Shown piece after piece: positions 2,421 to 20,936 of a stretch of 64,000 bases of DNA. How positions within the stretch are numbered: the first letter of the stretch is position 1; each line of letters starts with the position of its first letter. The DNA is from an uncultured Candidatus Saccharibacteria bacterium (GTDB lineage: Bacteria > Patescibacteriota > Minisyncoccia > Phycocordibacterales > PALSA-1337), in contig CAYOTK010000004.1 in the NCBI GenBank assembly GCA_964406895.1, forward strand, positions 26,016-90,015, given 5' to 3'. The notes under the pieces were generated by a model. The model ran no database searches. It was not told the origin of the DNA and saw only the letters and a list, made by a program, of their open reading frames with translations. A program made the translations under genes and the position numbers.

Positions 2421-2530
2421 GAGCCTATAATATTTGTTTTTTTAAAATTGTAGGCTCTTTGAGTAAACGCCACAAAAATGGCGACGGCTTCAAATAGGTG
2501 CGCCGGAATAAGCACCAGTGGAGAATCACA

Positions 2531-3742
2531 ATGAGTGATATCGTCCAATTGGGGATTGATCTCGCCCCCAAGGTGTCCGCTGTAATGACGGATGTCCTAA
2601 CGCGAAATCTCGGCCGTGAGGCAATTGTGCGGGCAACAATGCTCGCGCTCGTTTCGGGCAGACCGGCGTTTTTCCTGGGCAGTCCTGGGATCAACAAAAC
2701 CGGGACGGTGCAGGACATCGCCCGTCGGGTTGACGGTGCGGTGTTTTTTGACGCGCTCATGCCGACCATCGTGTCGGTTGAGCAACTGTTGGTGGAGAGC
2801 ACCTCCATCGTGGAGTCCCCGATAACTGATGGAGGTAAATCCATCAGCACCAGCGACAAGCTTGGGCGAGCAGCAAACGCGCACATTCTGTTCGCCGACG
2901 AGATTTGGAAAGCAGAACCTCGAGTTTTGCAGACCGTTTTGGACTTGGCGAAAGGCGACGGCGTTCGGCACGAGGGACGGATGATTAAAACCCCGCTTCT
3001 CGCTTTTGTGGCGGCCAGCAATGAGCTGCCGGATTCTGAAGGAAACCTCGGAGCACTGTGGTCACGAATGACCATTCGAGCCGAGGTGAAGTCCCTTGAC
3101 CGGGCCGGAAAAAAAAGCCTGGTCGCGACGCGATTGAACCGGCAACAGGCCGGCAAGTCAGCGCCGACAGGGGCGACTCTGACACTCGCTGAAGTGGAAA
3201 CGCTTCGCGAGGTTCGGCCGTTCGTGGAGGTTGGTGACGATATCGTCGAGATTGTACTCGACCTTTACCAATCGCTCCTTGACGGGGACAACGCCGGGTT
3301 CGCCTGGCTATGGGCCGACGACCGACGGTTCGGTCGTTGCATTGACGTTTTGCAGGCCAGTGCACTCCTTGACGGGAGAGCGCGAGTCGGCAAGCAGGAC
3401 CTTCGGGTTCTGGAGTTCTTGCTCTGGGACACCCCCGAGCAGATCCCCGTCGTCAAAAGCAAAATCGCCCCGCTCTGTCGGACACCACTGTCCGACGCGC
3501 AGGAGCTCGTAGACACACTCTTCGCTCCAGCGGGAGTGGTGGCGGAAGCGCTGGCTGGCGATCGGAACAAGATTGTTCCGGCCATCACCCAGTTTGAGGA
3601 GGCTGAGAAGGAACTCAGCCGGCTCGCGGGTGAGGCGAGTGGAACGGAAAAGGAGCAGATCGGCACGCTCCTCGCCAAAATTGCCGAGGAAAAACAGAAC
3701 GCGGTGGCGATCATACTTGGCGCCAAGCGTTGGAAAAAGTAG
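2531..3742 (+). CDS. MoxR-like AAA+ ATPase with atypical Walker A
   Basis: Start taken at the second ATG (MSDIVQLG), with GGAGA 8 nt upstream. Walker A is LGSPGINKTG (N replaces the conserved second G). Walker B is ILFADEIWKA. The MoxR sensor region DEI.KA.P.....LL....E......G......P..F..ASNELP parallels DEINRA...TQ.ALLEAM.E..V......-....F.VIATQNP. Confidence 0.7.
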   Translation: MSDIVQLGIDLAPKVSAVMTDVLTRNLGREAIVRATMLALVSGRPAFFLGSPGINKTGTVQDIARRVDGAVFFDALMPTIVSVEQLLVESTSIVESPITDGGKSISTSDKLGRAANAHILFADEIWKAEPRVLQTVLDLAKGDGVRHEGRMIKTPLLAFVAASNELPDSEGNLGALWSRMTIRAEVKSLDRAGKKSLVATRLNRQQAGKSAPTGATLTLAEVETLREVRPFVEVGDDIVEIVLDLYQSLLDGDNAGFAWLWADDRRFGRCIDVLQASALLDGRARVGKQDLRVLEFLLWDTPEQIPVVKSKIAPLCRTPLSDAQELVDTLFAPAGVVAEALAGDRNKIVPAITQFEEAEKELSRLAGEASGTEKEQIGTLLAKIAEEKQNAVAIILGAKRWKK

Positions 3743-3754
3743 AAAGGATCGGAA

Positions 3755-5491
3755 ATGCAAACGAAAGCCAGCCCGCTCATGCGGCAGGAGTTGCAGAAAC
3801 TCCTGGTCACGGATGCGGACGCTTTCACGGCGCTCCGCTTCCTGCGTCACCGCGAGCGCACCCCAGCGCTTTCGGAATTGGAAAACCAAGGAGGAAACGA
3901 GGTGCCCGGTTTTGCCGGAGCGCTTTGTGACCTCTACCACTCACTGTGGACGGAGACACCCAAGGTCAAGGAAGAAATTCCGGCTGACCGGCGGTTCTTC
4001 GCGGAGATTCTTCGGGGGGCGCTGGCATCGTCAGCGTTTGATGGTCTCCACGCGCAGACACAGTACTCAGACATCAAGTCGGTACTCGGCACCCTTTCCA
4101 TGGGTGATGCAGTGCTGGCAACGATGTCTCCGGAGGAAAAGAAAAATCTCCAAGACACTGCTAGTGCGCAGAAAACAGCGGATGAAGCCGAGGACGAGGC
4201 CAAACAGGCCGAGAACGAAGCTGATTCTGCTGAAGCACTCGCCCAGATGGTGGAGCAATCCGCCGGACAGGGCGAGAGCAGTGAGGGCGGACAAGAATCA
4301 TCCGGCGATCCTTCGGGAGAAGCCGAGGGTGGTTCTGGAGCGCCCAAATCAGGCAGTCCTTCAGGATCGCCAAGTGGTGGTTCACACGGAGCAGTTAGCG
4401 GAATGACGCCCGATGAAGCGCAGGCACTTGCGAACGAACTCGCTCGACAAGCGAGGGAGGCGCGTGCCAAAGCCAACTCGGCACGCGAAACTGCGAACAG
4501 CGCCAAAGAGGTCGCCGAATCCATCGCCAACCAACTTCTGGGGCAACCCGGAAGCGAGGAGGCGATGGAGAGAGCGAAAGATCTGGCGCGTCGTGGATTA
4601 GCCGCTGCTCAAAAGGCCCAAGCGAAGGTTGAGGAAGTATCCAAGACCATTGACTCGTGGGGGCTTGAGGAAGGCGAGCTCGTCCAGATGGGCATTCCGG
4701 AGGCCATGGGGCTTCTAGAAAAAATGCGCCAGAGCACGGCGCTCAAGAAGTTTGCTCAACTCCTGGGCCGAATCAAAAAGATTGCCGCTCGAAAAGCGGC
4801 GTCCGATGATAAAGCCGATGGAGTGCGAGTCACGAAGCCGGAAACGGGTCATGATATCAAAAGAGCGCTTCCGAGGGAGCTCACTGCTCTCTCGCACCCA
4901 TCGCTTCGTTTCGGCGCACTGACGCGCTGGAGCCGAGGAGAACTCGCTCTTCGGGGCGAGGAATCAAAGAGGAAATTGGGCGAGGGGCCGGTCGTGGTCT
5001 GCGAAGACTCGTCAGGCTCTATGGACGGGGTTAAGCAACAGTGGGCAAAGGCTGTAGTTTTAGCACTGGCCCATTACGCAAAGCTTCGTAACCGATCGTT
5101 CGCGTGGATCATGTTTGACACTGCTATCCAGCGGAGTCGCATTTACACTCGCGGGCGATTAACGCCCAAGGACCTTTTGGAAATCGCCGAGTCACGCTCA
5201 GGAGGTGGGACGAATTTTGAAATCCCCCTTCGCGAAGCCGTCAAAGTGATTCGTGGTGCTGGCCTTAAGAAAGCCGACATTGCGTTCATCACCGACGGGG
5301 ATTGCGCGATTTCGGACGAATTCGTTCGGGAGTTTGGTGGGGTCAAGAAGGCATTGGAAGTCAACGTGTTCGCAGTTCTCTGCGATGTTGGCCATACTGC
5401 CGAGGCGACCATTGCAAAATTCTCGGACAGAATTGAACAGGCTTCATCTTTCAACGAGGATGAAGCGGAACAATTTTTCCAAAAACTCTGA
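3755..5491 (+). CDS. von Willebrand factor A (vWA) domain protein with acidic/coiled-coil N-terminal region
   Basis: Starts 12 nt after MoxR, with AAAGGA upstream. The C-terminal vWA domain has a complete MIDAS: VVVCEDSSGSMDG (DxSxS), SRSGGGTNF (T) and AFITDGD (D). The N-terminal ~380 aa are Ala/Glu/Ser/Gly-rich low-complexity and coiled-coil. Confidence 0.75.
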   Translation: MQTKASPLMRQELQKLLVTDADAFTALRFLRHRERTPALSELENQGGNEVPGFAGALCDLYHSLWTETPKVKEEIPADRRFFAEILRGALASSAFDGLHAQTQYSDIKSVLGTLSMGDAVLATMSPEEKKNLQDTASAQKTADEAEDEAKQAENEADSAEALAQMVEQSAGQGESSEGGQESSGDPSGEAEGGSGAPKSGSPSGSPSGGSHGAVSGMTPDEAQALANELARQAREARAKANSARETANSAKEVAESIANQLLGQPGSEEAMERAKDLARRGLAAAQKAQAKVEEVSKTIDSWGLEEGELVQMGIPEAMGLLEKMRQSTALKKFAQLLGRIKKIAARKAASDDKADGVRVTKPETGHDIKRALPRELTALSHPSLRFGALTRWSRGELALRGEESKRKLGEGPVVVCEDSSGSMDGVKQQWAKAVVLALAHYAKLRNRSFAWIMFDTAIQRSRIYTRGRLTPKDLLEIAESRSGGGTNFEIPLREAVKVIRGAGLKKADIAFITDGDCAISDEFVREFGGVKKALEVNVFAVLCDVGHTAEATIAKFSDRIEQASSFNEDEAEQFFQKL

Positions 5492-5502: not shown

Positions 5503-6156
5503 ATGGAAAATATCGTTGTAACGCTTCGAGCTGACCGGGGCAACAAGTTCGATGAAGACGGTCAGTGTATCGGGACCCATGAAAGGTCAATCGTCTTCAT
5601 GCCACGCGAGGTCAAGCCTGACCAAGTTGTCCGCGTCCGACTCATACCGATCATGGATCGAATGACGGGGAAAGAAAGAGTGGACAAAGGTGGCAGAGTT
5701 ATGTACCGCGCCGAACTCGCACCAGCGGAACTGCCGAGGAAATGCGAGGAAGACATTGCAAGGCAAGCAAAAGCCTTGCGGCAAGGCAAACCCTTTCCGA
5801 AGGATCAAGGCGAGGCACTCGCCAAATCCATATTTGGTAAGCGATTGGAACGTACTGACCACAAGTGGTACTACTTTTTCGCTGATGCCATCTTGGGGTC
5901 GCGGTTTTCACCCGCTGCCCTATTGATCTTAGAGGGGATGCCGATGTCTTCTGGTAGCTCATACGATGAGCTTATGGGGTGGTTGATCGGTAAAACTCGC
6001 TGGGGTTACAACTGGTACCACTTCCGAGAATCAGGAAAGATCGGAAAGGATGAGGTTCCGGAGTTTCCAGAAATAGAGCTCCGGACACTTATCGCGCGCC
6101 TTGAAAAAGGCGAATGGGTCATCGCAGACCTCTTGGTTAAGGAGGAACCGCGATGA
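5503..6156 (+). CDS. Hypothetical protein with TRAM-like (OB-fold) N-terminus; candidate vWA-MoxR-associated partner
   Basis: Starts 11 nt after the vWA gene. N-terminus VVTLRADRGNKFDEDGQCIGTHERSIVFMPREVKPDQVVRVRLIPI resembles the TRAM pattern (G.G.....g.vvFV....PGE.V.v.I). The rest is unassigned. Confidence 0.4.
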   Translation: MENIVVTLRADRGNKFDEDGQCIGTHERSIVFMPREVKPDQVVRVRLIPIMDRMTGKERVDKGGRVMYRAELAPAELPRKCEEDIARQAKALRQGKPFPKDQGEALAKSIFGKRLERTDHKWYYFFADAILGSRFSPAALLILEGMPMSSGSSYDELMGWLIGKTRWGYNWYHFRESGKIGKDEVPEFPEIELRTLIARLEKGEWVIADLLVKEEPR

Positions 6157-6191
6157 AAGGTTTTTGGTGCTGCAACACCAGTGGTTAAACC

Positions 6192-6235
6192 GGACGAATT
6201 TTTGCAGAAATTCGTCCACTTTATTCAATTCATAA
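6192..6235 (+). terminator. Hairpin after the TRAM-like gene (possible terminator)
   Basis: GGACGAAUUU / AAAUUCGUCC 10-bp stem, followed by ACUUUAUUCAAUUC, which is only moderately U-rich. Confidence 0.35.
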
Positions 6236-6327
6236 CTTCGGTTACGGATTGATAGAGTTTCAGCTCGAACCGCGTCCGCAGGCGCAACAATTTGCGGAAA
6301 AATTGCCCTTGAAAGGAGGGCTAACAG

Positions 6328-6774
6328 ATGAATTACAAAATCATCCCCGGATCCGTCGGGGTCCGGAAGTCGTTTCAGGTTACCTGCGGACTGCGCGTCG
6401 GGTACGACGCAGCCGCGGTGACTCACACCGGCGAGGAGGCCGTCGAGTCCGTCCTCGAACAATTGAAGTTCCGTGCGGCTGCGGGACTGCCGTACCTAAC
6501 CGGTACAATCACAACCGGAGAGGTCGTGTATGCATGGTCGGATGGGCCGGGCAAGGCCGGCGGCGGGCACGAGCCCGTCATCCGGTACGAGGGAGAAGTC
6601 AACCCCCTGTACAACAAGAATCTTCTCGAGAATCACGACGAGGTCGTCGCGATCTTGAACGAGCTCGGCATCGCCCTCGGAGCGGCGCTCGGGCAAACGC
6701 GGATCTACCTGGCCTACGACGGCCAGACGTGGATCCTCGAGGCGGAGAAGGCGGTTACCCCGACGGGTAACTAA
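6328..6774 (+). CDS. Hypothetical protein
   Basis: 148-aa ORF on the same strand within the island, with GGAGGG upstream. No recognisable motif. Confidence 0.35.
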   Translation: MNYKIIPGSVGVRKSFQVTCGLRVGYDAAAVTHTGEEAVESVLEQLKFRAAAGLPYLTGTITTGEVVYAWSDGPGKAGGGHEPVIRYEGEVNPLYNKNLLENHDEVVAILNELGIALGAALGQTRIYLAYDGQTWILEAEKAVTPTGN

Positions 6775-7005
6775 TTTCTCCAAAGGTTGTGTGAACCTTC
6801 AAAACATTCTGCGTCCCGCGTGGCGCAAAAAAATTTGGTTAACGGTGAGTGTATGCGGACACCCACAAAACTTTCAGCACCGGTCGGGTTGATCGGTGCT
6901 GGACTTTATTGAGTCCGTCCGCTTTTAGCGGGTTGATTCAAAAAGTTAAAGACAGCGACGAGAGTCGCCCGAGCCAGTCGGGTACTGGCATGAAAGGATA
7001 GCGGA

Positions 7006-8715
7006 ATGAAAAATATCCGCCGAGTAGTGGTTTGCGGACCCCCGCATTCGGGAAAGTCTGTGTTCCTAGCCAATCTCCAACGGCTATTGCCGGTTGAGCA
7101 TCACATGCTCATTTTCGGCGCTCCCGACGGTGAGTGGCATTGGAGCAACGAGGCCAACCAGAGCCTCGTCAAAAACCTGCGGGAAAAGAAAGGCTTCTCG
7201 CAGGACTGGTGCCGTCAAATCGTAACAGCGATCCAGAGTGCCGATCAGAAATTGGTACTCGTGGATACGGGTGGCAAGCGATTGCCACCGAACGATGAGA
7301 TCTTCTCGTCGTGCGATGGTTTCATCATTATTTCCTCATCGCCGGAGGAAATGATTGAGTGGCGGAAGTTCGGCGAGAGTTTCGGATGCCAGTGCTTGGC
7401 CGAGCTTGACTCGGTTTTGCATGGAACGTCAGAGCTCTATCCAGACCGCAAGGACGGCATCATCCGCGGTCAGATATGCGGTCTCGAGCGCGGGAAGACC
7501 ATTGAGTCGCCTGTGATGGACGCGGTGGCCAGTCGGCTTTGCGAAGTCATCAAAGCTAACGCTGAAATGACCAAGGCCGAACTTCTCGCCAACATCAATG
7601 GCGTGAAGTTGGTAGACCATCTGGGAATCACAGATCGCTCGGATCCGTATCTCGGAGTGAGGCCCTGGCACACGGCTCCTGCACTCAAACTCACGGCCGT
7701 GGCGCGCCGACTGGAAATCGTGCGAATCTGGAATGTCCGCACAAGTTTCCTGTCCTGCGCCTTCGCCTCGATGCTCCCAGGAAAAGTCCAGCTCTTCGGC
7801 GTGTCCGAGGGGTATGTGGAATTACCTGAAGTCGTTCCGGCTGGGAACGCTTCCGGCGATGGGGTGGAATGGGAAGTTACCGAACTGGCCGAGTATACCT
7901 TAGTGGAATTCCGCAAAACACGATTCTTCACTAAGGAACTGCTGGCGAGCGTGGTACCGCCCGTAGTCAATTCTCGCAAGGGGGTTGTGCTGTCTACGGA
8001 CGGTCCGCCCATCTGGCTAGACGCGACGATCGCAAGGTCGTATGCAAAAGCTGGCGCACCATGGATTGCTGTCTTCGTTCCGGTTGAGTCCGGACGAGTC
8101 CAGCCGTCTTTGGACGGCCAGAAATGGAGTGATGTGCACCCACCAGACGGACCGTGCGTGATAATTTACGGTCCGGAAAATCGGCTGGGAGAAATCATTC
8201 CCGTGCCGATTGCCCTGCTTAAATGGCAAGGGGGTGGACGTAAGTGGCGACTCGGGTCGGGCGAGCCAGTCGTGGATCGACAGAACAGCCACCTTGCCAC
8301 GCACGGCACGGTTTTGCCGTTCGTGGGTGAAGCCTTGCTCCAGATTCAATCCGGAGGACAAGACTTCATCGCCGAAGAAGTAGGTTTTGGCGAAGCCATC
8401 GGGCAGACGATTTGTGTCGCCACCCGCGAGGATGACGACATCGTTTTCGCCCAGCGGCCAAACCGAGCCGGACTCACACGGTTCGTGAAAGGTCGCGAGC
8501 CGGAGTCGTGCTCGACGGTTGTGGTTTGTCTAAAGCGAGCGCGGGAGGGCGGATACATCCTCCTTACTGCGTACATTGGTAGACGCACACCGGCCGAACC
8601 GTGGGACATGGAATGGGCAACGGATCAGTCCGTGCCTTTCTGGAATTCCCATGCTCTGATTTGGGGGCACGAATCAACAATACCAGGAACTGAAACGAAG
8701 GTTTGTTCTTGGTGA
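7006..8715 (+). CDS. P-loop GTPase-like protein, paralog B
   Basis: G1 is VVVCGPPHSGKS and G3-like is LVLVDTGGK. The N-terminal domain and a C-terminal block (GPPIWLDATIARSYAKAGAPWIAVFVPVESGRVQ...GQKWSDVH) are paralogous to ORF 1..1236. An additional ~170-aa C-terminal extension is present. Confidence 0.65.
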   Translation: MKNIRRVVVCGPPHSGKSVFLANLQRLLPVEHHMLIFGAPDGEWHWSNEANQSLVKNLREKKGFSQDWCRQIVTAIQSADQKLVLVDTGGKRLPPNDEIFSSCDGFIIISSSPEEMIEWRKFGESFGCQCLAELDSVLHGTSELYPDRKDGIIRGQICGLERGKTIESPVMDAVASRLCEVIKANAEMTKAELLANINGVKLVDHLGITDRSDPYLGVRPWHTAPALKLTAVARRLEIVRIWNVRTSFLSCAFASMLPGKVQLFGVSEGYVELPEVVPAGNASGDGVEWEVTELAEYTLVEFRKTRFFTKELLASVVPPVVNSRKGVVLSTDGPPIWLDATIARSYAKAGAPWIAVFVPVESGRVQPSLDGQKWSDVHPPDGPCVIIYGPENRLGEIIPVPIALLKWQGGGRKWRLGSGEPVVDRQNSHLATHGTVLPFVGEALLQIQSGGQDFIAEEVGFGEAIGQTICVATREDDDIVFAQRPNRAGLTRFVKGREPESCSTVVVCLKRAREGGYILLTAYIGRRTPAEPWDMEWATDQSVPFWNSHALIWGHESTIPGTETKVCSW

Positions 8716-10454: not shown

Positions 10455-11039
10455 CTATTTCCTCGCTACAAATTGAAACACATGCCCTGAGCGCACCTCA
10501 TGGTCTGCGTCTTTGTCATCATTCTCTTTCTCAACAAAATCCAAAATTTCTAAATCTTGCAATAATTTCTCGACCCTTTCCCTACTTGGATAAGTCTTAT
10601 CTAAACCACTATTACCAGCAGATTTGTCACGATTACCGAATAATTGACAGCAGAAAATACCGTCTTTCTTCAAACTATTCTTGATTTTCTCGAAAACCAT
10701 ATCGAAATTATTAGGGCTGCAAAAGTTCAAAGAAAACATTGCCGAAGCCAAGTCGTATTCATTTTCTGGAAATTGAAAATCCTCAAAAGATTCGATGACG
10801 GGGTGTAATTTATTATTGGCCAAACTGGTCGCCTCTTGAGCCAAAAGAGGACTATTATCAATAACCGTTACTTCGAAACCTTGTTTCAATAAATAAACAC
10901 AGTCTCTCAATGCCCCACCACCAATATCGATCGCCCTCCCTTTTGCTTTTACATACTTTTGAGCCTCAACAAGAAAAGAATATGGTGGCAAATTTCGAGT
11001 ATATTCATAATATTGAGACCAATCTGTTGTTTTTGCCAT
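10455..11039 (-). CDS. Class I SAM-dependent methyltransferase
   Basis: Motif I AIDIGGGALRD and a downstream acidic motif (VTVIDNSP). Overall TehB/UbiE-like fold pattern over 194 aa. Confidence 0.7.
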   Translation of the reverse strand: MAKTTDWSQYYEYTRNLPPYSFLVEAQKYVKAKGRAIDIGGGALRDCVYLLKQGFEVTVIDNSPLLAQEATSLANNKLHPVIESFEDFQFPENEYDLASAMFSLNFCSPNNFDMVFEKIKNSLKKDGIFCCQLFGNRDKSAGNSGLDKTYPSRERVEKLLQDLEILDFVEKENDDKDADHEVRSGHVFQFVARK

Positions 11040-11214
11040 AAGTTATATTTCTACTACTCACTTTTTCTACAAAATTTATTACAATACATTCATGACCTAA
11101 TAAATCTCTTATGAGAATGATCTGAAAAAATCTTAACACCGGAACAAATCAGTAGTGCCTGCACCGAGCGAGGAACAAACCCTCATCTTAGGCACAAACT
11201 TCAACGAATCGAGG

Positions 11215-11285
11215 TGCGGGCAGGGAGAATCGAACTCCCGTCTACACATTGGAAGTGTGTTATTCTACCACTAAACCATGCCCGC
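11215..11285 (-). tRNA. tRNA-Gly (anticodon UCC)
   Basis: The reverse complement reads GCGGGCAUGGUUUAGUGGUAGAAUAACACACUUCCAAUGUGUAGACGGGAGUUCGAUUCUCCCUGCCCGCA. It has a 7-bp acceptor, a GUUU/GAAU D-stem, an ACACA/UGUGU anticodon stem with loop CUUCCAA, and T-arm GGGAG-UUCGAUU-CUCCC. CC is encoded after the discriminator but the final A is not. Confidence 0.8.
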
Positions 11286-11363
11286 AATATTCAGTTATTT
11301 AAGAACAAAGTCAATACTAGCAATTATTTTTCGATATAACAAGACACTAATTTATCCAAAAAA

Positions 11364-11804
11364 TTATTTTTTATTTTCGTTTTCACTCTTTCCATCAACA
11401 ATCACCTCTTTGATCTCATCAATCTCCTTTTTCATCTCCTTGATTGTTGTTCTGATCTGCCCTATCTGCATTTCTTCCTCTTCTATTTCCTTCTCAGTTT
11501 TGTCCGTAACCTTCTTTTGCCCCTTCAAACCACTAATCAATATGGTGTCCCCTATAAAATAAGAAACAAACAATCCGGTAGCAAGCAAAACAATCAACAC
11601 CAAGATAAGACTTATAGGTTCATAGAATATGATGCCCCACCACCCTCCTTTGGCCTGAAGTATGTCGGCAGTATGCCAAACACCTCTCCAAAACAAAACA
11701 ATAGCCGTACCCCCTATCAACGTATAAAGAATAGGATAACGACTGAGGTGAACCCTGATCACATCCTCCAATTTATCAAAGAAATTTACTACTCTTTTTA
11801 TCAT
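11364..11804 (-). CDS. Hypothetical small membrane protein with Lys/Glu-rich C-terminus
   Basis: 146-aa ORF with two hydrophobic segments (LIGGTAIVLFW, ISLILVLIVLLATGLFV). AT-rich codon usage consistent with the host. Confidence 0.4.
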   Translation of the reverse strand: MIKRVVNFFDKLEDVIRVHLSRYPILYTLIGGTAIVLFWRGVWHTADILQAKGGWWGIIFYEPISLILVLIVLLATGLFVSYFIGDTILISGLKGQKKVTDKTEKEIEEEEMQIGQIRTTIKEMKKEIDEIKEVIVDGKSENENKK

Positions 11805-11831
11805 TTTTATGATTAATTTACTTAATATTCT

Positions 11832-11907
11832 TGGTCGGAGCGCCGGGATTCGAACCCGGAGTCACCTGTACCCAAAACAGGTATGTTAGCCGTTACACCA
11901 CGCTCCG
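11832..11907 (-). tRNA. tRNA-Pro (anticodon UGG), CCA encoded
   Basis: The reverse complement reads CGGAGCGUGGUGUAACGGCUAACAUACCUGUUUUGGGUACAGGUGACUCCGGGUUCGAAUCCCGGCGCUCCGACCA. Anticodon loop is UUUGGGU, T-arm is CCGGG-UUCGAAU-CCCGG, and the 3' CCA is genomically encoded. Confidence 0.8.
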
Positions 11908-11949
11908 TATGCAATGATATTAGCATAATATATCGAAATTGCACACGAA

Positions 11950-12348
11950 TCACAAAATAATATCCTGAATCCAATTGATATTCCCTGCCCTATTATCAGA
12001 ATCGATGTGAATTGCCAAAACGTGAAAATAAAATCTGATCTCATCACTTATTTTATTTTCATTCAAGTATGTTTCTATCATTCTGCGAATATGCTTCACC
12101 TTGAAACCATGAACATTCTCTTCCGGCCTATGGATGTCTGTTACATTTCCTATATTAAAAGTCGTGCTTTTTACCTCGAAGAAATGTATAGCACCATCCT
12201 TGAAACCAACAATATCTAATTCTCCCCATTTACGTTGGTAATTTCTAGCTATAATAGAAAAATTATTTTTCTTCAAGAAATCGCAAGCAATATCTTCTCC
12301 AATCTTTCCAAAGTATTTATTTTGTTTTTTGTTTGCATTATTTAACAT
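11950..12348 (-). CDS. YraN/UPF0102 family endonuclease-like protein
   Basis: 132-aa protein with GELDIVGFKDGAIHFFEVKS, matching the UPF0102 core (GE.DI.....L.FVEVK.R). Confidence 0.6.
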   Translation of the reverse strand: MLNNANKKQNKYFGKIGEDIACDFLKKNNFSIIARNYQRKWGELDIVGFKDGAIHFFEVKSTTFNIGNVTDIHRPEENVHGFKVKHIRRMIETYLNENKISDEIRFYFHVLAIHIDSDNRAGNINWIQDIIL

Positions 12349-12692
12349 AAATGTCCTGACTTTTAAACTTGAATAATAATAGTACGGCCCAAATTAGCCA
12401 CATTCACAGTATTCACAAATAATAGGACCAAAAAACACGAATATTAGCCATATTTCCTGTCTTTTATCACCACTATTAACAGACTTATCCACAGTTTGTC
12501 CTTTCAGCCCACGAATTTAAGCCGTATTTATCCGACTTATATGTGTATAAAGTACTGTCGTTTATACTTTACAATTCGTACTAATATTCCGCTCTAATAA
12601 AGCATTGTCTAACAAAAAACTACACACTTATTGTGCCTGCACCGAGCGAGGTGCTAAATCGAAATTATTTACTAATCACGAAAAAATTGAGG

Positions 12693-13139: not shown

Positions 13140-14609
13140 ATGATAATACCGAGTGAAATAAGCATAATCCTTGAAACGATCCGCAAATCCGGCCATGAAG
13201 CATATCTAGTCGGGGGTTGTGTTCGAGATATATTCCTCGGAAGAAAGCCAAAAGATTGGGACATAACAACGAATGCCAAGCCAGAAGAAATCCAGAAACT
13301 GTTTACAAAAACCGTGTATGAGAATATATACGGTACTGTAGCAGTAATAAACGAGGAAACTCTTGATGACACTCTAAGACAGGTAGAAATAACTCCCTAT
13401 CGACTAGAATCAATATATTCAGACAGCAGACACCCTGATCACGTAATATTTAGTGAGGAAATTGAAGATGATCTGAAAAGAAGAGACTTTACTATCAATT
13501 CCCTAGCTCTCAATGTCTCAGAAGATACAATAAAAGACACCATTGACCTTTTTGGCGGTTTAAAAGATATAAAAGACAAACTTATAAAGACAGTCGGCAA
13601 TCCAGACGATAGATTCACGGAAGATAGCCTTAGAATGATGCGTGCCATAAGACTGTCAGTTGAACTTGATTTCAAAATCGACATAGATACACTAAATTCT
13701 ATAAAGAAGCTAAACAAATCAATAAAACTGATAGCCATTGAGCGTGTAAGGGATGAATTCATAAAAATAATTATGTCTGACAGGCCTAAATTGGGCATTG
13801 AAATGCTGTATTCTACCGGATTATTGCAACATATAGTGCCAGAACTGATAAAAACAATCGGTGTTACACAAAACCAAGCTCATGCATATAATGTCTGGGA
13901 ACACCTGTTATTCAGTCTTCAACACGCTGCAGACAAGAAATGGCCTCTAGAAATAAGGCTTTCTGCCCTATTTCACGATATTTCAAAGCCACAAAAGAAG
14001 GGTCTTTCACGTGAAACAGGGATAATTACATTCTATGGACACGAATTGGCTGGTTCACGTGAAACACAAAAAATACTCGAAAGGCTCAAGTTTTCACGTG
14101 TAACTATAGACAAGATCGCCAAATTAGTGAGATGGCATATGTTCTTCTCGGATACCGAGATGATCACTCTATCGGCTGTTAGACGTATGATCGTTAACGT
14201 GGGACGCGAAAATATATGGGATTTAATGAATTTAAGAGTATGTGACAGAGTTGGCACCGGAAGACCTAAAGAAAATCCTTATAGGTTAAGAAAATACAAA
14301 GCAATGATCGAGGAGGCTCTGAGAGACCCAATCTCAGTTTCTATGCTGAAAATTGATGGAAACACTCTAATGAGTAAGTACAATCTCAAACCTGGTCCAA
14401 TCATAGGTAATATACTAAATGCACTTATGGAAGAGGTTCTAGAAGATCCAAAGCTAAATAATGAAGAATACCTGTTTTCACGTGTAAATGAACTAATATC
14501 TCTATCAGATAGTGAATTAAGAAAATTAGCAGATAAAGGCAAGGAAAAAAGAAATGAATTGGAAGAAAATGAAATAAAAGACATAAGAAATAAGCATCAC
14601 GTTGATTAG
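13140..14609 (+). CDS. cca: CCA-adding tRNA nucleotidyltransferase with C-terminal HD domain
   Basis: N-terminal nucleotidyltransferase motif YLVGGCVRD...DWDI, and an HD-domain region (HD at LFHDISKP). 489 aa. Confidence 0.85.
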   Translation: MIIPSEISIILETIRKSGHEAYLVGGCVRDIFLGRKPKDWDITTNAKPEEIQKLFTKTVYENIYGTVAVINEETLDDTLRQVEITPYRLESIYSDSRHPDHVIFSEEIEDDLKRRDFTINSLALNVSEDTIKDTIDLFGGLKDIKDKLIKTVGNPDDRFTEDSLRMMRAIRLSVELDFKIDIDTLNSIKKLNKSIKLIAIERVRDEFIKIIMSDRPKLGIEMLYSTGLLQHIVPELIKTIGVTQNQAHAYNVWEHLLFSLQHAADKKWPLEIRLSALFHDISKPQKKGLSRETGIITFYGHELAGSRETQKILERLKFSRVTIDKIAKLVRWHMFFSDTEMITLSAVRRMIVNVGRENIWDLMNLRVCDRVGTGRPKENPYRLRKYKAMIEEALRDPISVSMLKIDGNTLMSKYNLKPGPIIGNILNALMEEVLEDPKLNNEEYLFSRVNELISLSDSELRKLADKGKEKRNELEENEIKDIRNKHHVD

Positions 14610-14639
14610 TTTGTATAAAAGACAGAGTTATCCACAGTG

Positions 14640-15075
14640 TGTCCTTTACAGACATTCGTATAAGACATAAAATGTACACCAGATGGTTCGTCAACCGAGG
14701 AAAAAAGTTCAGAAAATATTTCCCATGAAATATCTGAACAAAAAGGACGAACACTGATCTTTGAAGTAAGGTGTGTTTGGGGTAAGGGTAGACCCCATCT
14801 AATTGATCAGTAACCATTAATATTTTTGTGTCGCTCTTTTGCTTGAGGAGCAATGAGAGTGCATGCTGTCATACAACAAAAATAGCCTCCCGACGGGAGA
14901 GCTCTTAAAAAAGACATGCGCACGCTCACCCAAGGAAAAGTCCTGACATCCATCCCTAGTAAGTGGTGTGAAAAGGGGATAAGGGTCTGTGGACCCATCG
15001 TGAGTTACTGACGCGCTTCGAGCCGCGTCCTTCGCATTCAATCTCTAGAGTGCCGACGCGGCTTCTTTTGTTATT
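14640..15075 (+). ncRNA. Candidate structured non-coding RNA in the 750-bp cca/TrmB-like gap (identity unresolved)
   Basis: About 50% GC in an AT-rich context with no credible ORF. Several hairpins (CUCCC-GAC-GGGAG, GGGUC-UGU-GGACCC, GACGCG...CGCGUC). An RNase P P4-like AGGAAAAGUCC motif is present, but its spacing to the following GUGAAAAGGGG element is not RNase-P-like. Ends with GCCG-ACG-CGGC plus UUCUUUUGUUAUUUG. Confidence 0.25.
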
Positions 15076-15361
15076 TGTAGAGTCTATTTTCAATTTAGTC
15101 CGCTCAGCAAAAACCCAGACATTTCACGCTACATTATTTGCATATAGACAAAAATTATTGTATTTCAAACTCGAGTTTTAGCAAAAATTCACAAGAATAC
15201 CGACATGATATGTAGTCAATAGTAAATTTCATTTAATGACGTCTATAAATTGAGTGAAAAAACGCCTAACGTTTTATTAATACGCTTATTTATGGCTGTA
15301 TAAAACAACCGTATTTTGAATTACTTTTTACTTCACCGTCAACCCTATAGGGCAATGATCA

Positions 15362-16129
15362 CTACCTATAAAAAACCTGATCCTTAGTTGTCTTCCACAT
15401 CACCTCAAAAAGCTCTTGATGCATCTTTATAGTACTTTTGTTTTCAATCACTATAGCCATAATCGGCATTTCTAACTGATGAATCAGAATCCTCTGTGGA
15501 GTTATAACCATATTTGTTGTTAATTTGGTCTCCGGCGGTAAAGCCCTGGCTTCCATGTTGAAATTCTTCTGAAATTGAAGGATCTTCTTACTTTCTTCAT
15601 TTTCCGGATCAGCAACTAAAATTCTGACACGGATTGGCAGTTTCGACCGCCTATCACGTAAGTCGTCGTAAAAAGCCTTGTCTAAGGCATAAGCCTTCTG
15701 CATACCAGCAATAATCATATAATCCTCTTTAGGCTTGATGTCAGTAAGTAAACTATTATAAACCGATCGAATTCCTTCCATGCCTTCATATATTCTTATT
15801 AAAGTCTCCCCGCCACCCTTATTGTATATATCCATAAAATCTCTTAAGCGGGTCTTCAGTTTGCTTTTCCTTTGTTCCAAAATAATTTCCAGCTTTTCTG
15901 GACTTTCGGCCGCAAATAAACTTTTAAAGCCTCTGAACTCAACTCTAACCAACCCTTTTTCTTTTAAAGCATCGATTACTGTGTATATGGTGGTTCTTTT
16001 TACTCCAGAAGCTCTAGAAATCTTCAAAACTGATGTAGGGCCAAGGGAAATCATGGCAAAATACACGGCCGACTCATGTTCGGATAGGCCAATGTCTTTC
16101 AGAATATCAAAATATTGATTCTTTTCCAT
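15362..16129 (-). CDS. TrmB-like HTH transcriptional regulator
   Basis: N-terminus MEKNQYFDILKDIGLSEHESAVYFAMISLGPTSVLKISRASGVKRTTIYTVIDALKEKGLV is a winged-helix TrmB-family pattern. 255 aa. Confidence 0.55.
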   Translation of the reverse strand: MEKNQYFDILKDIGLSEHESAVYFAMISLGPTSVLKISRASGVKRTTIYTVIDALKEKGLVRVEFRGFKSLFAAESPEKLEIILEQRKSKLKTRLRDFMDIYNKGGGETLIRIYEGMEGIRSVYNSLLTDIKPKEDYMIIAGMQKAYALDKAFYDDLRDRRSKLPIRVRILVADPENEESKKILQFQKNFNMEARALPPETKLTTNMVITPQRILIHQLEMPIMAIVIENKSTIKMHQELFEVMWKTTKDQVFYR

Positions 16130-16312
16130 TATTGTTTTAATAAAAGTGTCTAATAAATCGACAACATAAATACTAACATAATCAACAATATAATTAAACT
16201 TTCTTACGATATGACGACATTTTCGACTATTTTAGTGCTTAGTAATAAAATTTATCGAGAACGATTAAGCAATGTGCTTAATTGAAAAACGGTCTTAAAC
16301 ATAGGAGTCATT

Positions 16313-17059
16313 ATGTTGCAAGATAACAATAAGAAAATTCTCTGGTATCGTTTACGAGAAGCAGCGACAATAGGGAGCTCGTTGTTTCTTGTTTTTGGTC
16401 CCACTTTTCTATTTTGTGCAACCATAATTTATGGTTGTGAAAGGCGATATCCGATTGAATTATTCTCTGCCGCATCATGTGTCGTTGTGGCAATAGTAAT
16501 TGTCGGTTTTCTTTTGGCCCTTAGTGACAGTGTGCCGACAGGCAAATGGCTAATTGAAGTTCAGGGCGGAACAATTGTATTGGATAAGGAAACCAATAAA
16601 ATTGTGGAGGTACAGAATAAAAATGTGGTTCTAAGAAAGAGTCACCCAATCTTCAACGAAAAGTATCAATTTCTTACCATAAATCCCTCACAAGAAATTG
16701 GAATTACCATTCACCAATTGAAAGAAAAAAATGTAAACAATATTCATTGCAGGTTGACTCTGAAGATTAAGGAGGTGAATTGTCAAGGCTTTCAAGTCTT
16801 GTTTGACTTTCTAGTACGTAAAAAAATGTGGAAGGTTGACAGCGTTGATGGAGGAAAAACAGAGATCATTTGGCAGAGACCTGTTCGAGGCATGCTCTAT
16901 GATTTCTGCAACACGCATTCATTTCAACTGTCTGAGCTTTTCAACCCAATGAGAGAGGAGCAACAAGAACGGTTCGAAATCATTATGCACAGCTACTTTG
17001 ATCCACTTTTAGACGAATCCGGTATCGAAATCACTAGTTGCCGATTCTCAGTAAGCTGA
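16313..17059 (+). CDS. Hypothetical membrane protein (two N-terminal TM segments)
   Basis: 248-aa ORF with TM segments ATIGSSLFLVFGPTFLFCATIIYG and AASCVVVAIVIVGFLLAL. No known motif. Confidence 0.45.
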   Translation: MLQDNNKKILWYRLREAATIGSSLFLVFGPTFLFCATIIYGCERRYPIELFSAASCVVVAIVIVGFLLALSDSVPTGKWLIEVQGGTIVLDKETNKIVEVQNKNVVLRKSHPIFNEKYQFLTINPSQEIGITIHQLKEKNVNNIHCRLTLKIKEVNCQGFQVLFDFLVRKKMWKVDSVDGGKTEIIWQRPVRGMLYDFCNTHSFQLSELFNPMREEQQERFEIIMHSYFDPLLDESGIEITSCRFSVS

Positions 17060-17088
17060 AAAGCTATGTACCATTGATTCATTTTCAT

Positions 17089-17119
17089 CCCCCCGTCGAG
17101 TTTGCTCGTCGGGGGTTTT
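17089..17119. terminator. Bidirectional terminator between convergent ORF 16313..17059 and xth
   Basis: CCCCCGUCGAG / CUCGUCGGGGG stem with one U-U mismatch, followed by UUUUC on the + strand and an A-run on the other strand. Confidence 0.5.
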
Positions 17120-17148
17120 CATGAATTCAGAAAATATCACAAATAAAT

Positions 17149-17937
17149 TTACATTATCTCCAACCCTATCGGGCAATGATCTGAGCCCATAACATTGTCT
17201 AAAATTTCAGTTTTCTTAACTAAATCAATCAAACCTTGAGAAATAAAGAAATAATCAATACGCCACCCAACGTTACGATCTCGAGCAAAGGTTTTCATGT
17301 CCCAGTATGTATAAGCATCTTTCAAATCAGGGTGTTGATGGCGGAAAATATCGACATAACCAGATTCGATGACTTTGTCTATCCACGCGCGTTCAATAGG
17401 TAAGAAGCCTGTGTTTTCTTCATTTTCTTTTGGACGAGCAAGATCGATCTCAGTATGAGCAGTATTAACATCCCCACAAAAAATAACTTCGTAACCATTT
17501 TTTCTTTGCTTATTCACATATTTCAAGAATTCATCGTAGAATCTTAATTTGAAATCCAATCGATCAGGCCCACCACCACCGTTAGGGAAGTAGGTGTTGA
17601 TAATAACCAATTTATTCGGCATATTATTCAGGTCATGAAAAAATAGGGCAAGAAAACGACCTTCTTGATCAAGTTCCTCCTTACCAAGTCCATATTCAAC
17701 CTTATTGGGCTCAATTTTCGAATATATAGCGACACCACTATAGCCTTTGCGACCTTTTGAATGGTCGAAATATGCATAATAACCATTTGGATTTCTAACA
17801 CCTTCTTCCAGTTGATCGGGGTGAGCTTTTGTTTCCTGAATACAATAAACATCAGGAGATTCATTTATAAACCAATCAAAACCGCCTTTCTTAACATTTG
17901 CACGAAGGCCATTTAAGTTCCAAGAAATGATTCGCAT
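17149..17937 (-). CDS. xth: Exodeoxyribonuclease III (Xth/AP endonuclease family)
   Basis: MRIISWNLNGLRA start, with NTYFPNGG and GDVNTAHTEID, and the C-terminal SDHCPIGLEIM motif. True start taken at the internal ATG; the longer ORF to 18042 extends into the palindromic repeat. Confidence 0.85.
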   Translation of the reverse strand: MRIISWNLNGLRANVKKGGFDWFINESPDVYCIQETKAHPDQLEEGVRNPNGYYAYFDHSKGRKGYSGVAIYSKIEPNKVEYGLGKEELDQEGRFLALFFHDLNNMPNKLVIINTYFPNGGGGPDRLDFKLRFYDEFLKYVNKQRKNGYEVIFCGDVNTAHTEIDLARPKENEENTGFLPIERAWIDKVIESGYVDIFRHQHPDLKDAYTYWDMKTFARDRNVGWRIDYFFISQGLIDLVKKTEILDNVMGSDHCPIGLEIM

Positions 17938-18261: not shown

Positions 18262-19209
18262 CTATTTCTTCTTATTATGAAACTTCTTATGAATATTCCT
18301 AAGCTCACTGTCTGTAACGTGAGTATAAATCTGAGTGGTTCCAATATTTGCATGACCAAGAAGCATTTGCACAGAACGCAAATCGGCACCATTTCTGAGT
18401 AAGTCAGTAGCGAAACTATGACGTATGACGTGTGGAGTAACTTTCTTCGAAATTCCAGCCTTAATAGCATAGTGTTTTATGATTCTTTCAACAGATCTTG
18501 TCGTCAACCTCGAAGCCTCCATATTGTTTTTCTTATTCGAAATCTGAACAAACAAAGCTTCTTCCATGTCATCTCTTTTGTCGAGATATTGCTTCAACCA
18601 TTTTTTGGCTTCATCAGAAAGAAAAACTACCCTTATCTTATCTCCTTTACCTCTGACAGAAAGCTCATCCAGCTTCATGTTGATTTCACGGGGCAGGGCA
18701 CAGAGCTCTGAAACACGCAAACCAGTCGAAAAAAGAAGTTCCATGATGGTTCGATCACGAAGGCCTCTCAATTTCGTTGTGTCGGGTGCATCCAATAATC
18801 GGCCTAATTCCTCGATTGTTATAAGATCCAGCGACCTTTCAGGAACTTTTGCCAATTCTATTCTCTCTGGCGGTAGTGATTTCACGCTCATTCTGGCAAG
18901 ATATTTGAGAAATGCTCTAAGAGCAATGAGATAGTAATTCTGAGTCTTCTTCTTCATGGTACCTGAAGCTAATCCTTTTGTTTTGCTTCCTTCTTGTCGA
19001 TTTAACCATAACCTAAACTCCCTAACCACATTATCTGTTATGTCATTTGGTGATTTCACCTTGGTAAATGATATGAAACGCGTCAAATATCGATCATAAT
19101 TTTCAACAGTCTTGAGTCCGCGACCTTTCTCTATCTCTATGTACTCCAAAAACTGTTGTTTCATGTCTTGAATATTGTGCGACATGAATACATTGTAGCA
19201 ATTATCCAC
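18262..19209 (-). CDS. xerC: Tyrosine site-specific recombinase, XerC/XerD family
   Basis: C-terminal catalytic motifs HVIRHSFATDLLRNGADLRSVQMLLGHANIGTTQIYTHV (R..H..R..LLGH...Y). N-terminal SAM-like domain (FLEYIEIEKGRGLKTVENYDRYL). Start could be any of the first three ATGs. Confidence 0.8.
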   Translation of the reverse strand: MDNCYNVFMSHNIQDMKQQFLEYIEIEKGRGLKTVENYDRYLTRFISFTKVKSPNDITDNVVREFRLWLNRQEGSKTKGLASGTMKKKTQNYYLIALRAFLKYLARMSVKSLPPERIELAKVPERSLDLITIEELGRLLDAPDTTKLRGLRDRTIMELLFSTGLRVSELCALPREINMKLDELSVRGKGDKIRVVFLSDEAKKWLKQYLDKRDDMEEALFVQISNKKNNMEASRLTTRSVERIIKHYAIKAGISKKVTPHVIRHSFATDLLRNGADLRSVQMLLGHANIGTTQIYTHVTDSELRNIHKKFHNKKK

Positions 19210-19249
19210 ATTTCAAACACACTTGACAAAAAAATGTGTGGTGGTAGTA

Positions 19250-19710
19250 TCTTACGTCAGATGACCTTTGGTAATGGTGAGGGCGCAGAACACACCACTC
19301 GTGGTGTGCAATACGCTTTGCATCGAAGGGTTGTCTGTGGCCTAACATCGAAAAAAAAGGCCACTATTGGAGGAAAGCCTATGAACAGTCCGCCCTGTGC
19401 GCTTCTCATGCGCACCAATGGAACGACCAAGAGTTCGGCGACATCCCGGGCGACCTGAAGCCCCGACCGGCCAACGGTACGCAGAACATCAACCAAAGAA
19501 AGGGGGTAGCGTGGAACGACTCGCAAAAATAGTCATCGCCCGAATGGTGGTGATTGAATGGCGGGCCAACACGGCCTTCACCTAACCAAACCTAGGGAAC
19601 CACAACAATTTCGCGGCCCTCCCTACCGCCCCGACCAGGCCGGTGAGCTAGTAAGAGCACGTACCCCACGTCGCTCGAGTTGGCTCACCGGCCGAATCTT
19701 TTTATATACC
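19250..19710 (+). ncRNA. GC-rich (~57%) candidate structured RNA (unidentified)
   Basis: A 460-nt non-coding GC island between the Xer gene and rpsO. It ends with an 11-bp stem (GGCCGGUGAGC...GCUCACCGGCC) followed by CGAAUCUUUUUAUAU. Contains a GAGGAAAGCC and a GUAAGAGCAC motif, and CGCAAAAAUAGUC resembling the tmRNA resume-codon context. No tRNA-like 3' domain was seen. ORFs in the track here are GC-biased and probably spurious. Confidence 0.3.
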
Positions 19711-19774
19711 TAGATAATGCAGATTTTAATACAGAAAGTTGCAAAAAAACCTCATTCATGCTATCATTTCCCAC

Positions 19775-20774: not shown

Positions 20775-20936
20775 TTTTTCAGCAGTACATGTGTGCTTTT
20801 GTTCGTTGCGAAAACTCACTCCTTAAATTTCTAAGAAAAAGCTTTACGAGGTCATCACGGTTCGGCTTTTTATAAGAAATTTATAGTCGTTCAAACAGTT
20901 CGCAACGAACAAAAGCACACATGTACTGCTGAAAAA
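20775..20936. repeat. Palindromic element copy 2: perfect 38-bp inverted repeats around the same 86-bp core
   Basis: tttttcagcagtacatgtgtgcttttgttcgttgcgaa at 20775-20812 is the exact reverse complement of 20899-20936. The core at 20813-20898 is ~95% identical to 18008-18093. The arm sequences differ from copy 1 but are again perfectly self-complementary. Confidence 0.7.

Follow-up and report, generated by a model that had tools for sequence, protein, structure and literature searches.

We analyzed a 64,000-nucleotide stretch of contig CAYOTK010000004.1 (assembly GCA_964406895.1), from an uncultured member of the Patescibacteria; this whole stretch is called the window below. The 3' end of its xth gene, which encodes exodeoxyribonuclease III, is followed by a small segment of DNA bounded by direct repeats and carrying genes for a TrmB-like regulator and a membrane protein. 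We propose that this segment is an accessory gene cassette without a recombinase of its own, that it sits in a recombination hot spot at the xth 3' end, and that it came there by homology-guided recombination with incoming DNA. We place the probability of this interpretation at about 0.5. It comes from comparing the window with related loci (designated by L and a number) and with Xth proteins (designated by P and a number).

The repeats are two 21-mers, CAACCCTATAGGGCAATGATC (15340-15360) and CAACCCTATCGGGCAATGATC (17161-17181), one base apart and located where the preliminary description of this DNA had put them. They are the only copies in the window at up to three mismatches (none expected, from 100 shuffles), so that the further search which had been suggested shows that the 21-mer is not a genomic repeat; a scan of viral contigs gave no match to it. 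Of the two, the copy at 17161-17181 forms the genuine end of xth and reads ...MGSDHCPIGLEIM* on the minus strand. As the preliminary description held, it codes for the C-terminal end of Xth, here the codons DHCPIGL, inside an intact gene of 262 amino acids (17149-17937, minus strand) with a Pfam Exo_endo_phos match (1e-28). The copy at 15340-15360 starts one base past the stop codon of the TrmB-like gene and reads ...IGSDHCPIGLTVK*. It is part of an orphan xth 3' end of 45 nt (15327-15371, minus strand), and the preliminary description of this copy as an orphan terminating in GLTVK* holds.

The 21-mer pair is the core of a longer similarity, 45 nt at 76% identity (15327-15371 against 17148-17192), which is in frame and has TTA stop codons in register (15328-15330 and 17149-17151); over 17148-17192 the xth end reads ...VMGSDHCPIGLEIM*. 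In strain L083 the repeat is a perfect 22-mer, GATCATTGCCCTATAGGGTTGA (window 17160-17181). L083 and L084 are two independent assemblies, from other sequencing runs, of a 96%-identical strain. Both contain the junction on the side of the remnant, and L083 spans the whole arrangement with both repeats. The presence of the junctions in these assemblies indicates that the arrangement is not an artefact of assembly.

Since the site is unoccupied in relatives, the segment between the repeat copies, 1,821 bp at about 15361-17160, is an insertion, and it lies in the last codons of xth. About 50 related genomes share the gene order NYN-S15-Xer-Xth-CCA-YraN. In the 53 loci with a CCA-adding enzyme gene after xth, the spacing between the two genes is less than 1 kb in 35 (typically about 500-650 nt) and more than 1.2 kb in the other 18. 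The window has a spacing of 2,540 nt, and subtraction of the 1,821 nt leaves 718 nt, as in uninserted relatives. Among the uninserted sites are L006, the window's neighbour on a tree of Xth, Xer and CCA sequences, and L095 and L096, whose Xth is 80% identical. The 'empty' xth end that the preliminary description had named as the check on an insertion is therefore present, in 35 of 53 syntenic loci. The same description had considered that relatives might show the arrangement with both repeats, with no empty site and with the 21-mer as a common repeat. Half of this holds, as L082 and L092 do show the arrangement with both repeats, yet empty sites exist and the 21-mer is no genomic repeat. The base composition of the cassette is like that of the rest of the genome and does not distinguish it. 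We predict that a restored unoccupied site would read ...GGCTCAGATCATTGCCCTATAGGGTTGACGGTGAAGTAAAAAGTAATTC and that the junction of a circular form would read ...TTATAGGTAGTGATCATTGCCCTATAGGGTTGAAGATAATGTAAATTT.

The preliminary description took the two repeat copies for a target duplication, but comparison with relatives shows that they are reciprocal mosaics of two different xth alleles, with non-resident sequence at the head of one (AGT) and the tail of the other (EIM*). The body of xth up to the repeat reads as the resident allele: it follows L093, a 92% relative, over the whole gene up to the core, at mostly 82-97% and 88.6% overall. The window's Xth is identical to NCBI protein P0248, and its best GTDB matches are metagenome-assembled genomes of Patescibacteria (Paceibacteria) at no more than 76% identity. 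The gene ends in a tail, E-I-M-stop (17149-17160, minus strand), of the same length as the displaced T-V-K-stop. Among 120 Xth homologues, tails beginning with 'G-L' are found in close relatives of the window only, and the tail GLEIM is confined to this species (P0124, P0248). The real Xth of P0126 (84% identical) ends in GLTVK and that of P0125 (92%) in GLTMK, while in the window's own 90% cluster P0246 (9 differences) ends in GLTVK and P0247 in GLTTK. Since the closest relatives thus carry GLTVK, GLTMK or GLTTK on their real Xth, the orphan keeps a tail of the ancestral type. In other words, the downstream copy is the displaced ancestral tail, and the present ...GLEIM* was brought by the insert.

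Ahead of the identity block the affiliations are those of two other alleles. The Gly-Ser codons are GGC-TCA in the window's xth, as in L093, and GGT-AGT in the orphan, as in L092, with whose real xth 3' end the orphan shares 43 of 45 nt. The orphan head TTATAGGTAGT, with its Ser codon AGT, is foreign to the resident allele (GGCTCA ... TVK*). Because this head matches a relative's xth (L092) at 10 of 11 positions outside the identical block, target-site duplication is ruled out, and the earlier judgement that the repeats are no classical transposase duplication stands, given the mosaic structure and the lack of a transposase. Past the block, the orphan runs into the clade's tail ACGGTGAAGTAA and then into DNA homologous to the flank 3' of L092's orphan; the gene runs into (A/G)AGATAATGTAA and then into cassette DNA. 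Just such a reciprocal pattern is expected if the end of the chromosomal xth recombined with an xth-like 45-mer on incoming DNA by a crossover within the 22-bp identity block. An 8-mer, AAGATAAT, that directly follows the identity block in both the window and L082 was considered as an element end and set aside; we judge it to be chance in A-rich sequence, and an in-frame alignment of the tails explains it equally well.

A different exchange is visible within the species. P0244 and P0245 (on Joint Genome Institute contigs of up to 15.9 kb) are this species' Xth through residue 231, with differences at residues 8 and 49 only, both of which also occur in the conspecific P0124. Their last 31 residues are L082-like (VTEGILKKVKNTKILDSVMGSDHCPIEVEVR, against VTEGIMKKVKNTKILDNVMGSDHCPIYLEVR in L082), which places a recombination breakpoint within the gene, some 93 nt ahead of its stop. 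The xth 3' end has thus been swapped from a distant lineage in a single species, at a breakpoint other than that of the window.

Comparison across relatives shows that the xth 3' end is a recurrent insertion hot spot, holding different cassettes with their own remnants in at least four more lineages. In L092 (Xth 84%) the insert consists of a 133-amino-acid open reading frame (ORF) and a TrmB paralogue only 25% identical to the window's, and the repeat TCATTGCCCTATAGGGTTGACGGT is perfect over 24 nt and extends to 30 nt with one mismatch. L082 has a 185-amino-acid ORF and a TrmB that shares 84% identity with that of the window; the repeat there extends over 35 nt with three mismatches, and the L082 orphan, DHCPIYLEVR*, is the same peptide as the end of L082's own xth. 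L027 contains a RelE/YafQ-ParD toxin-antitoxin pair and an orphan of 19 codons whose differences from the gene are mostly synonymous, and L059 has a 162-amino-acid membrane ORF at the xth end together with its own xth-end remnant. L093 (Xth 92%) was considered as an unoccupied site and rejected, as at least 0.8 kb of unrelated DNA is present there, including a 107-amino-acid membrane-like ORF; the contig stops before the far side.

A TrmB gene with a small, divergently transcribed partner is a recurrent type of cargo in these comparisons. Close TrmB homologues are 77-86% identical between genomes whose Xth and CCA sequences are 55-74% identical. They lie at various places (between xer and xth, beside yraN, and elsewhere), each with a different divergent gene. 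Because their identity is above that of the host genes and their locations and partners vary, we take this to point to lateral movement of the module. The TrmB protein found no match in viral contigs, and in a search of metagenome contigs, which chance peptide matches saturated, one unrelated locus was returned. L059 also carries a second TrmB module (10678-12086), made up of a TrmB gene (10762-11520, minus strand), a divergent 121-amino-acid ORF and a terminator hairpin. This module has sharp borders and a perfect 23-nt direct repeat, TTTTCTATTTCACCCCGTAGCGT, and lies in non-coding DNA unrelated to xth.

The mosaic pattern shows how the window's arrangement was formed. Incoming DNA with an xth-like end crossed over with the chromosomal xth end inside the identity block and supplied a replacement tail, so that xth stayed intact. 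The intact gene is composed of the resident body, the 22-bp block and the foreign tail EIM*, followed by a hairpin, and the orphan of the foreign xth-like head, the block, the ancestral tail TVK* and the resident downstream DNA. We infer that the general homologous-recombination machinery of the host made this crossover and later spread the cassette, using short or long homology. Two routes may have been taken: Campbell-type insertion of a circularised fragment with a short xth end, or allelic replacement with a left arm in xth and a right arm in the genes for the non-coding RNA (ncRNA) and the CCA-adding enzyme. The SDHCPI-coding block is the last stretch that matches between diverged alleles before the variable region begins. 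Each cassette lineage would have started with a single crossover of the Campbell type, which left the orphan as its scar.

This hypothesis is favoured by what the cassettes contain and by how their borders vary. The window cassette has two ORFs only, the TrmBL2-like protein and the membrane protein, and no recombinase; no inverted repeats bound its ends. No integrase, resolvase or transposase family was detected in the 36 ORFs of 15 occupied xth-CCA intervals, and a Xer-derived hidden Markov model run over the window and 97 loci (1.18 Mb) returned the conserved Xer orthologue and no other tyrosine recombinase. Repeat extents are unlike between lineages (22 nt; 24 of 30; 23 of 35), and the borders vary too. 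Across relatives the core block varies at every synonymous position (GAT/GAC, CAT/CAC, TGC/TGT, CCN, ATH), and in view of this variation the block is no sequence conserved for recognition by a protein. Next to unoccupied sites, the neighbouring Xer gene is equally conserved. Site-specific integration, which the preliminary description had suggested from the length of the repeat, is thus not favoured, given the lack of an integrase, the variable repeat extent and core, and the conspecific breakpoint 31 codons upstream.

Several observations nevertheless weigh against homology-guided recombination. With 22-24 nt of identity, RecA-type recombination is at its lower limit, and still cassettes with a remnant recur in at least 5 of about 55 lineages. 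The sharp repeat of the second TrmB module in L059 looks more like the core of an attachment site than like a homology tract. The window and L082 share the junction between TrmB and the remnant, but each remnant has the codons of its own host (GGG TTG against TAT TTG), so that repeated re-integration or gene conversion would be needed. Finally, our view of this genome covers 64 kb, and a recombinase could be encoded elsewhere in it, or on a phage or plasmid.

These points bear on the main, though tentative, alternative, in which a recombinase acts in trans. The cassette would then be a miniature integrative element, similar to the CIMEs or IMEX elements described below, with the xth-like 45-mer as its attP, the xth end as attB and a 22-bp core, moved either by the conserved Xer-like recombinase 1.1 kb away (18262-19209) or by an integrase encoded elsewhere. 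A conserved gene whose 3' end is repeated in direct orientation over 22-24 bp, and replaced by one borne on the element, shows the classic att architecture known from e14 in icd (PMC6379469). One short target is reused by unrelated cargos, the second L059 module has its sharp perfect 23-bp repeat, and a tyrosine recombinase of Xer/XerA type always adjoins xth in the syntenic loci (XerA 237.9 bits, cut-off 220). This alternative is kept alive by the shortness of the tracts (22-24 nt), the sharp repeat in L059, the lineage-specific match of orphan and gene seen both in the window and in L082, and the 64-kb view. We consider it unlikely all the same, as no cassette in the 15 occupied intervals encodes an integrase, 1.18 Mb holds no second tyrosine recombinase, Xer is as conserved next to unoccupied sites, and neither the 21-mer nor the TrmB gene was found in viral contigs. 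Moreover, the core is not dif-like and has no 11-6-11 palindrome; lineages differ in it by 30-40%, and it varies freely at synonymous sites. Neither the length of the repeat nor the apparent place of the crossover is constant among lineages, and a conspecific strain has its break 31 codons upstream. An extension of this alternative is more speculative still, and we give it little weight: the Paceibacteria, members of the candidate phyla radiation (CPR) in which very few mobile elements are known, may possess a chromosomal gene-capture platform in which the SDHCPI-coding xth end is the site, small recombinase-less cassettes (modules with a TrmB regulator, toxin-antitoxin pairs, membrane proteins) move in and out, and a host Xer-like enzyme in trans is the most plausible agent. 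Such a platform would be a functional analogue of the integron and dif-module systems that uses the end of a protein-coding gene, and the 23-bp module of L059 would mark a secondary site.

Other explanations fare worse. Homology-facilitated illegitimate recombination would have a linear foreign fragment (the 3' part of xth and the cassette) anchored in xth and joined at its far end 45 nt before the host's stop codon, which makes the whole orphan host-derived and the present xth 3' part donor-derived. The orphan is indeed one contiguous stretch like a single natural allele (43/45 to the L092 xth end), remnant lengths range from 35 to about 60 nt between lineages, and the L027 ends have no identical run above 5 nt and mostly synonymous differences. 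We find this improbable because the window's xth resembles L093 right up to the block, TCA codon included, and the orphan has AGT, so that the host allele would have to be L092-like and the whole gene to come from the donor. All five remnants also start no more than ~60 nt from the end of a gene of 790 nt, a pattern that might be biased if long, unstable repeats are lost, and the junction between the TrmB stop and the remnant is common to the window, L082 and, in decayed form, L081, which independent joins would not give. That shared junction, with a TrmB C-terminus (WKTxK) abutting the remnant in all three, is an argument for an ancestral arrangement, in which the common ancestor of the window and L082 already had cassette and remnant, empty sites are secondary precise deletions, and gene conversion held the repeats alike. 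Deletion between direct repeats is easy, and the nucleotide identity between the window and L082 is little higher for TrmB (78%) than for xth (73%). We strongly doubt this scenario as well, as the two are at least five uninserted lineages apart on the Xth, Xer and CCA tree, their partner genes differ, the closest relatives L092 and L093 have quite different cassettes, and TrmB is 83% identical where CCA is 55%, with no scaling to host divergence. Conversion, too, would have had to homogenise the central 22 nt only and leave the flanks at about 50%. Insertion of a transposon or insertion sequence (IS) with a long target-site duplication might account for direct repeats round a discrete segment and for the perfect tracts of 22-24 bp in four modules. 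It is refuted by the mosaic structure, with in-frame similarity beyond the perfect block and a register-matched stop, and there is neither a transposase nor a terminal inverted repeat at the cassette ends. An assembly artefact or chimera is hardly credible either: the genome is metagenome-derived and the first 9 kb of the window are foreign in composition, but the remnant-side junction recurs in the L083 and L084 assemblies and both repeats in L083, L082 and L092 have analogous structures, and in base composition the cassette does not depart from the genome around it. The account that we prefer remains recombination guided by homology, at a hot spot.

Read in the orientation of xth, the locus consists of the Xer gene, two long hairpins, xth, a hairpin, the membrane-protein gene (opposite strand), a 183-nt divergent promoter region, the TrmB-like gene, the orphan xth end, ~250 nt of non-coding DNA, a candidate RNA gene of ~385 nt (opposite strand) and the CCA gene. 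The TrmB-like gene (15362-16129, minus strand; Pfam TrmB, PF01978, 2e-14), whose last codons run into the xth remnant, encodes a TrmBL2-like DNA-binding protein and no recombinase. Its predicted structure (AlphaFold2 mean confidence, pLDDT, 89.5) has an N-terminal winged helix, a long helix and a C-terminal domain like that of phospholipase D (PLD), the layout of the TrmB/TrmBL2 family. Over the full length, Foldseek matched TrmBL2 (5box, 2e-13), an archaeal chromatin protein and regulator, and TrmB (3qph, 4e-10), and the C-terminal domain resembles NucT and PLD3. The H-x-K (HKD) motif is absent from the invariant columns of the protein, which also lacks the sugar-binding domain of TrmB proper (NCBIfam equivalog 45.9 bits against a cut-off of 650). 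The idea that the PLD-like domain makes this protein a hidden recombinase was rejected in view of the TrmBL2 fold, the missing HKD motif and the fact that most TrmB paralogues in the loci have no repeats at their flanks. In L083 the TrmB ends differently and is 254 amino acids long, against 255 in the window, owing to an extra G just ahead of the remnant.

The other cargo gene (16313-17059, plus strand) encodes a protein of 248 amino acids with two N-terminal transmembrane helices and an alpha/beta domain, which matched no Pfam or NCBIfam family. It has three homologues in 5.8 billion proteins, one of which (49% identical) is divergent from a TrmB gene 71% identical to the window's. Its model (pLDDT 69) gives the SPFH domains of stomatin and erlin as the best PDB matches, at E about 1e-3, which is a hint only of a weak likeness to the SPFH/stomatin fold. 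The L083 copy (803-1225) is shortened to 140 amino acids by a stop beside a run of A (window ...AAAGAAAAAAATG...), so that either a frameshift has occurred, the tract is phase-variable or the homopolymer was misread in sequencing. The divergent promoter region (16130-16312) is kept in L082 though the partner gene differs there; by blastn, the window is homologous to L082 from 16290 down to 15325. The region contains overlapping promoter-like sites (16223-16251, plus strand; 16258-16229, minus strand), and from this arrangement we think that the TrmBL2-like regulator probably controls the membrane-protein gene.

A GC-rich hairpin that is part of the insert (17090-17115, plus strand; -22.9 kcal/mol, z = -4.2) had been described as a bidirectional terminator. 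Its stability agrees with this, but it is followed by a U-tract on the plus strand only, that of the membrane-protein gene, and by none on the xth strand, and it is terminator-like for the membrane-protein gene alone. A small hairpin with a U-run lies 3' of the remnant (15259-15275, minus strand), in a flank homologous to that after L092's remnant. It was probably the original xth terminator and would now serve the TrmB-like gene.

The neighbourhood holds further features of interest. Beyond the remnant, at about 14690-15075 on the plus strand, lies the candidate structured RNA gene (roughly 385 nt), with a promoter TTTACA-17-TAAAAT at 14645-14673, AGTTATCCACAG ahead of this promoter and a terminator GCCGACGCGGC followed by a T-run at about 15050-15075. 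It is 80% conserved in L092, its 5' part is kept in L095, L006 and L082, and it matches no Rfam family at E <= 10. The CCA-adding enzyme gene follows at 13140-14609. On the other side of xth is the Xer-type tyrosine recombinase gene (18262-19209; Phage_integrase 3e-45, besides the XerA match given above), and the spacer between the two genes, 5-160 nt in relatives, is filled here by two long near-perfect hairpins with arms of 41 nt (17967-18007/18094-18134) and 34 nt (18142-18175/18219-18252). The inner 106 nt occur again after the NYN gene (20803-20908, 97%) and upstream of xth in L093 (1-107, 96%), so that the hairpins look like a palindromic element resembling a miniature inverted-repeat transposable element. 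In L001 a 'split Xer' (5822-7999) was examined as a second gene-end duplication and rejected: the Xer gene encodes 725 amino acids because it is interrupted, at its catalytic ...VIRHC | ... SHN | CFATDLL motif, by an intein that has a LAGLIDADG-type domain.

Between rpsO (S15) and xer, ~500 nt at 19200-19720 have a G+C of 0.53-0.55 and a non-coding look; several relatives have 480-720 nt there, and Rfam gave no match for the stretch. For GC-rich neighbours, Rfam returned only spurious miRNA-hairpin matches. A motif AGTTATCCACA(G)...TGTCCTTTACA, with the DnaA-box-like TTATCCACA, occurs at 12479-12504 and 14622-14647 and in intergenic DNA clade-wide. It closely precedes -10-like boxes and probably reflects a promoter architecture typical of the lineage. 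The first 9,300 nt of the window are 55% G+C, against about 37% for the rest, and encode Csx3 domains (25-1236, 7006-8715), a MoxR-type AAA ATPase (2498-3742) and a VWA protein (3755-5491); this looks like a foreign defence-type island or a chimeric join. Elsewhere, in L086 (3853-4290), a small ORF for a GIY-YIG endonuclease lies between the copies of a 38-nt direct repeat resembling a tRNA gene's 5' half; a homing endonuclease may have inserted there, next to a tRNA gene or inside one.

Gene flow in the Patescibacteria is poorly understood, as their genomes are tiny and have few recognisable mobile elements. This locus provides a concrete and datable example of the entry of accessory genes behind a conserved gene, whose end was repaired and where a short scar was left. 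From the scar, each junction can be attributed to donor or recipient, and in public data it reveals at least five cassettes that entered this position independently. Should insertion be driven by a host enzyme, for instance the adjacent Xer, this would be a new cassette-capture system; if, as we think more likely, plain homologous recombination does, it is an instructive yet ordinary case of island turnover.

The closest structural parallel is prophage e14 (and phage 21) in the icd gene of Escherichia coli, where the element supplies a new 3' end and the original end is left as a short pseudo-copy (PMC6379469). There, too, the insert lies in the last codons, brings a substitute 3' end and has homologous junctions, with the 45-nt orphan and the EIM* tail as the counterparts in the window. 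The repeats are attL/attR-like, one copy completes the gene, and unoccupied sites exist. In contrast, e14 is about 15 kb long and has its own integrase and a fixed core, whereas the window cassette is 1.8 kb long and encodes no tyrosine or serine integrase, and the repeat extents and breakpoints of its relatives vary. Cis-mobilizable elements (CIMEs) are defined as having kept attL and attR and lost the genes for integration and transfer (PMC5704250). The window cassette likewise shows no genes for recombination or transfer, is bounded by direct repeats and is located at a gene 3' end, as are decayed elements of the ICESt1 type at the fda 3' end. However, CIMEs derive from integrative and conjugative or integrative and mobilizable elements that have integrase-bearing relatives, and no such relative of the window cassette was found at the same site (18 occupied sites; 1.18 Mb).

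Two kinds of system in which small modules without recombinases accumulate also deserve comparison. Integrative mobile elements exploiting Xer (IMEX) and the dif modules of Acinetobacter, often toxin-antitoxin pairs or single genes, are moved by host Xer (PMC6449649, PMC13141974). The Xer-type gene that always adjoins xth (18262-19209), also beside unoccupied sites, and the toxin-antitoxin pair of the L027 cassette are reminiscent of these. Yet both kinds are bounded by 28-bp dif-like sites with palindromic arms, which alternate in orientation in the dif modules, while the window repeats are the end of a protein-coding gene and are not conserved as DNA between lineages. The two arms of ~11 bp with a 6-8-bp spacer expected of such sites are absent: in the core GATCATTGCCCTATAGGGTTGA only CCCTATAGGG is palindromic, and only in this lineage, the L082 core being CACTGCCCTATATATTTGGAGGT. 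A search for a conserved dif-like motif around xer and xth in 49 loci recovered only the xer coding start, ATGTCGCACAATAT (MSHNI), and a promoter-like AGTTATCCACA..GTCCTTTACA. Integrons, too, have small recombinase-less cargos at one site beside a tyrosine recombinase related to Xer. Their cassettes carry attC hairpins with GTTRRRY cores, however, which the window cassette lacks, its only hairpins being terminator-like. The adjacent recombinase scored 130.9 bits (cut-off 265) and 79.5 bits (cut-off 435) against integron-integrase models, and it points the same way as xth, with no divergent arrangement relative to an attI. As for transposons and IS elements, the cassette has neither a transposase nor terminal inverted repeats nor a sharp identical duplication.

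Flexible genomic islands are exchanged by homologous recombination between conserved flanking genes. The interval between xth and the ncRNA and CCA anchors is hypervariable in the same way, with differing cargos in relatives and breakpoints at various places in the anchor gene. The double crossover of flexible islands leaves no duplicated gene end, and the orphan in the window would need an extra step, either a single crossover (Campbell-type) or an illegitimate one. In our analysis the behaviour of the cassette is nonetheless best matched by such islands turning over by homologous recombination, with the addition of a scar at the gene end. The principle is textbook; what is new is the target, xth, the Patescibacteria host, the very small size of these recombinase-less cassettes and the number of independent occupants.

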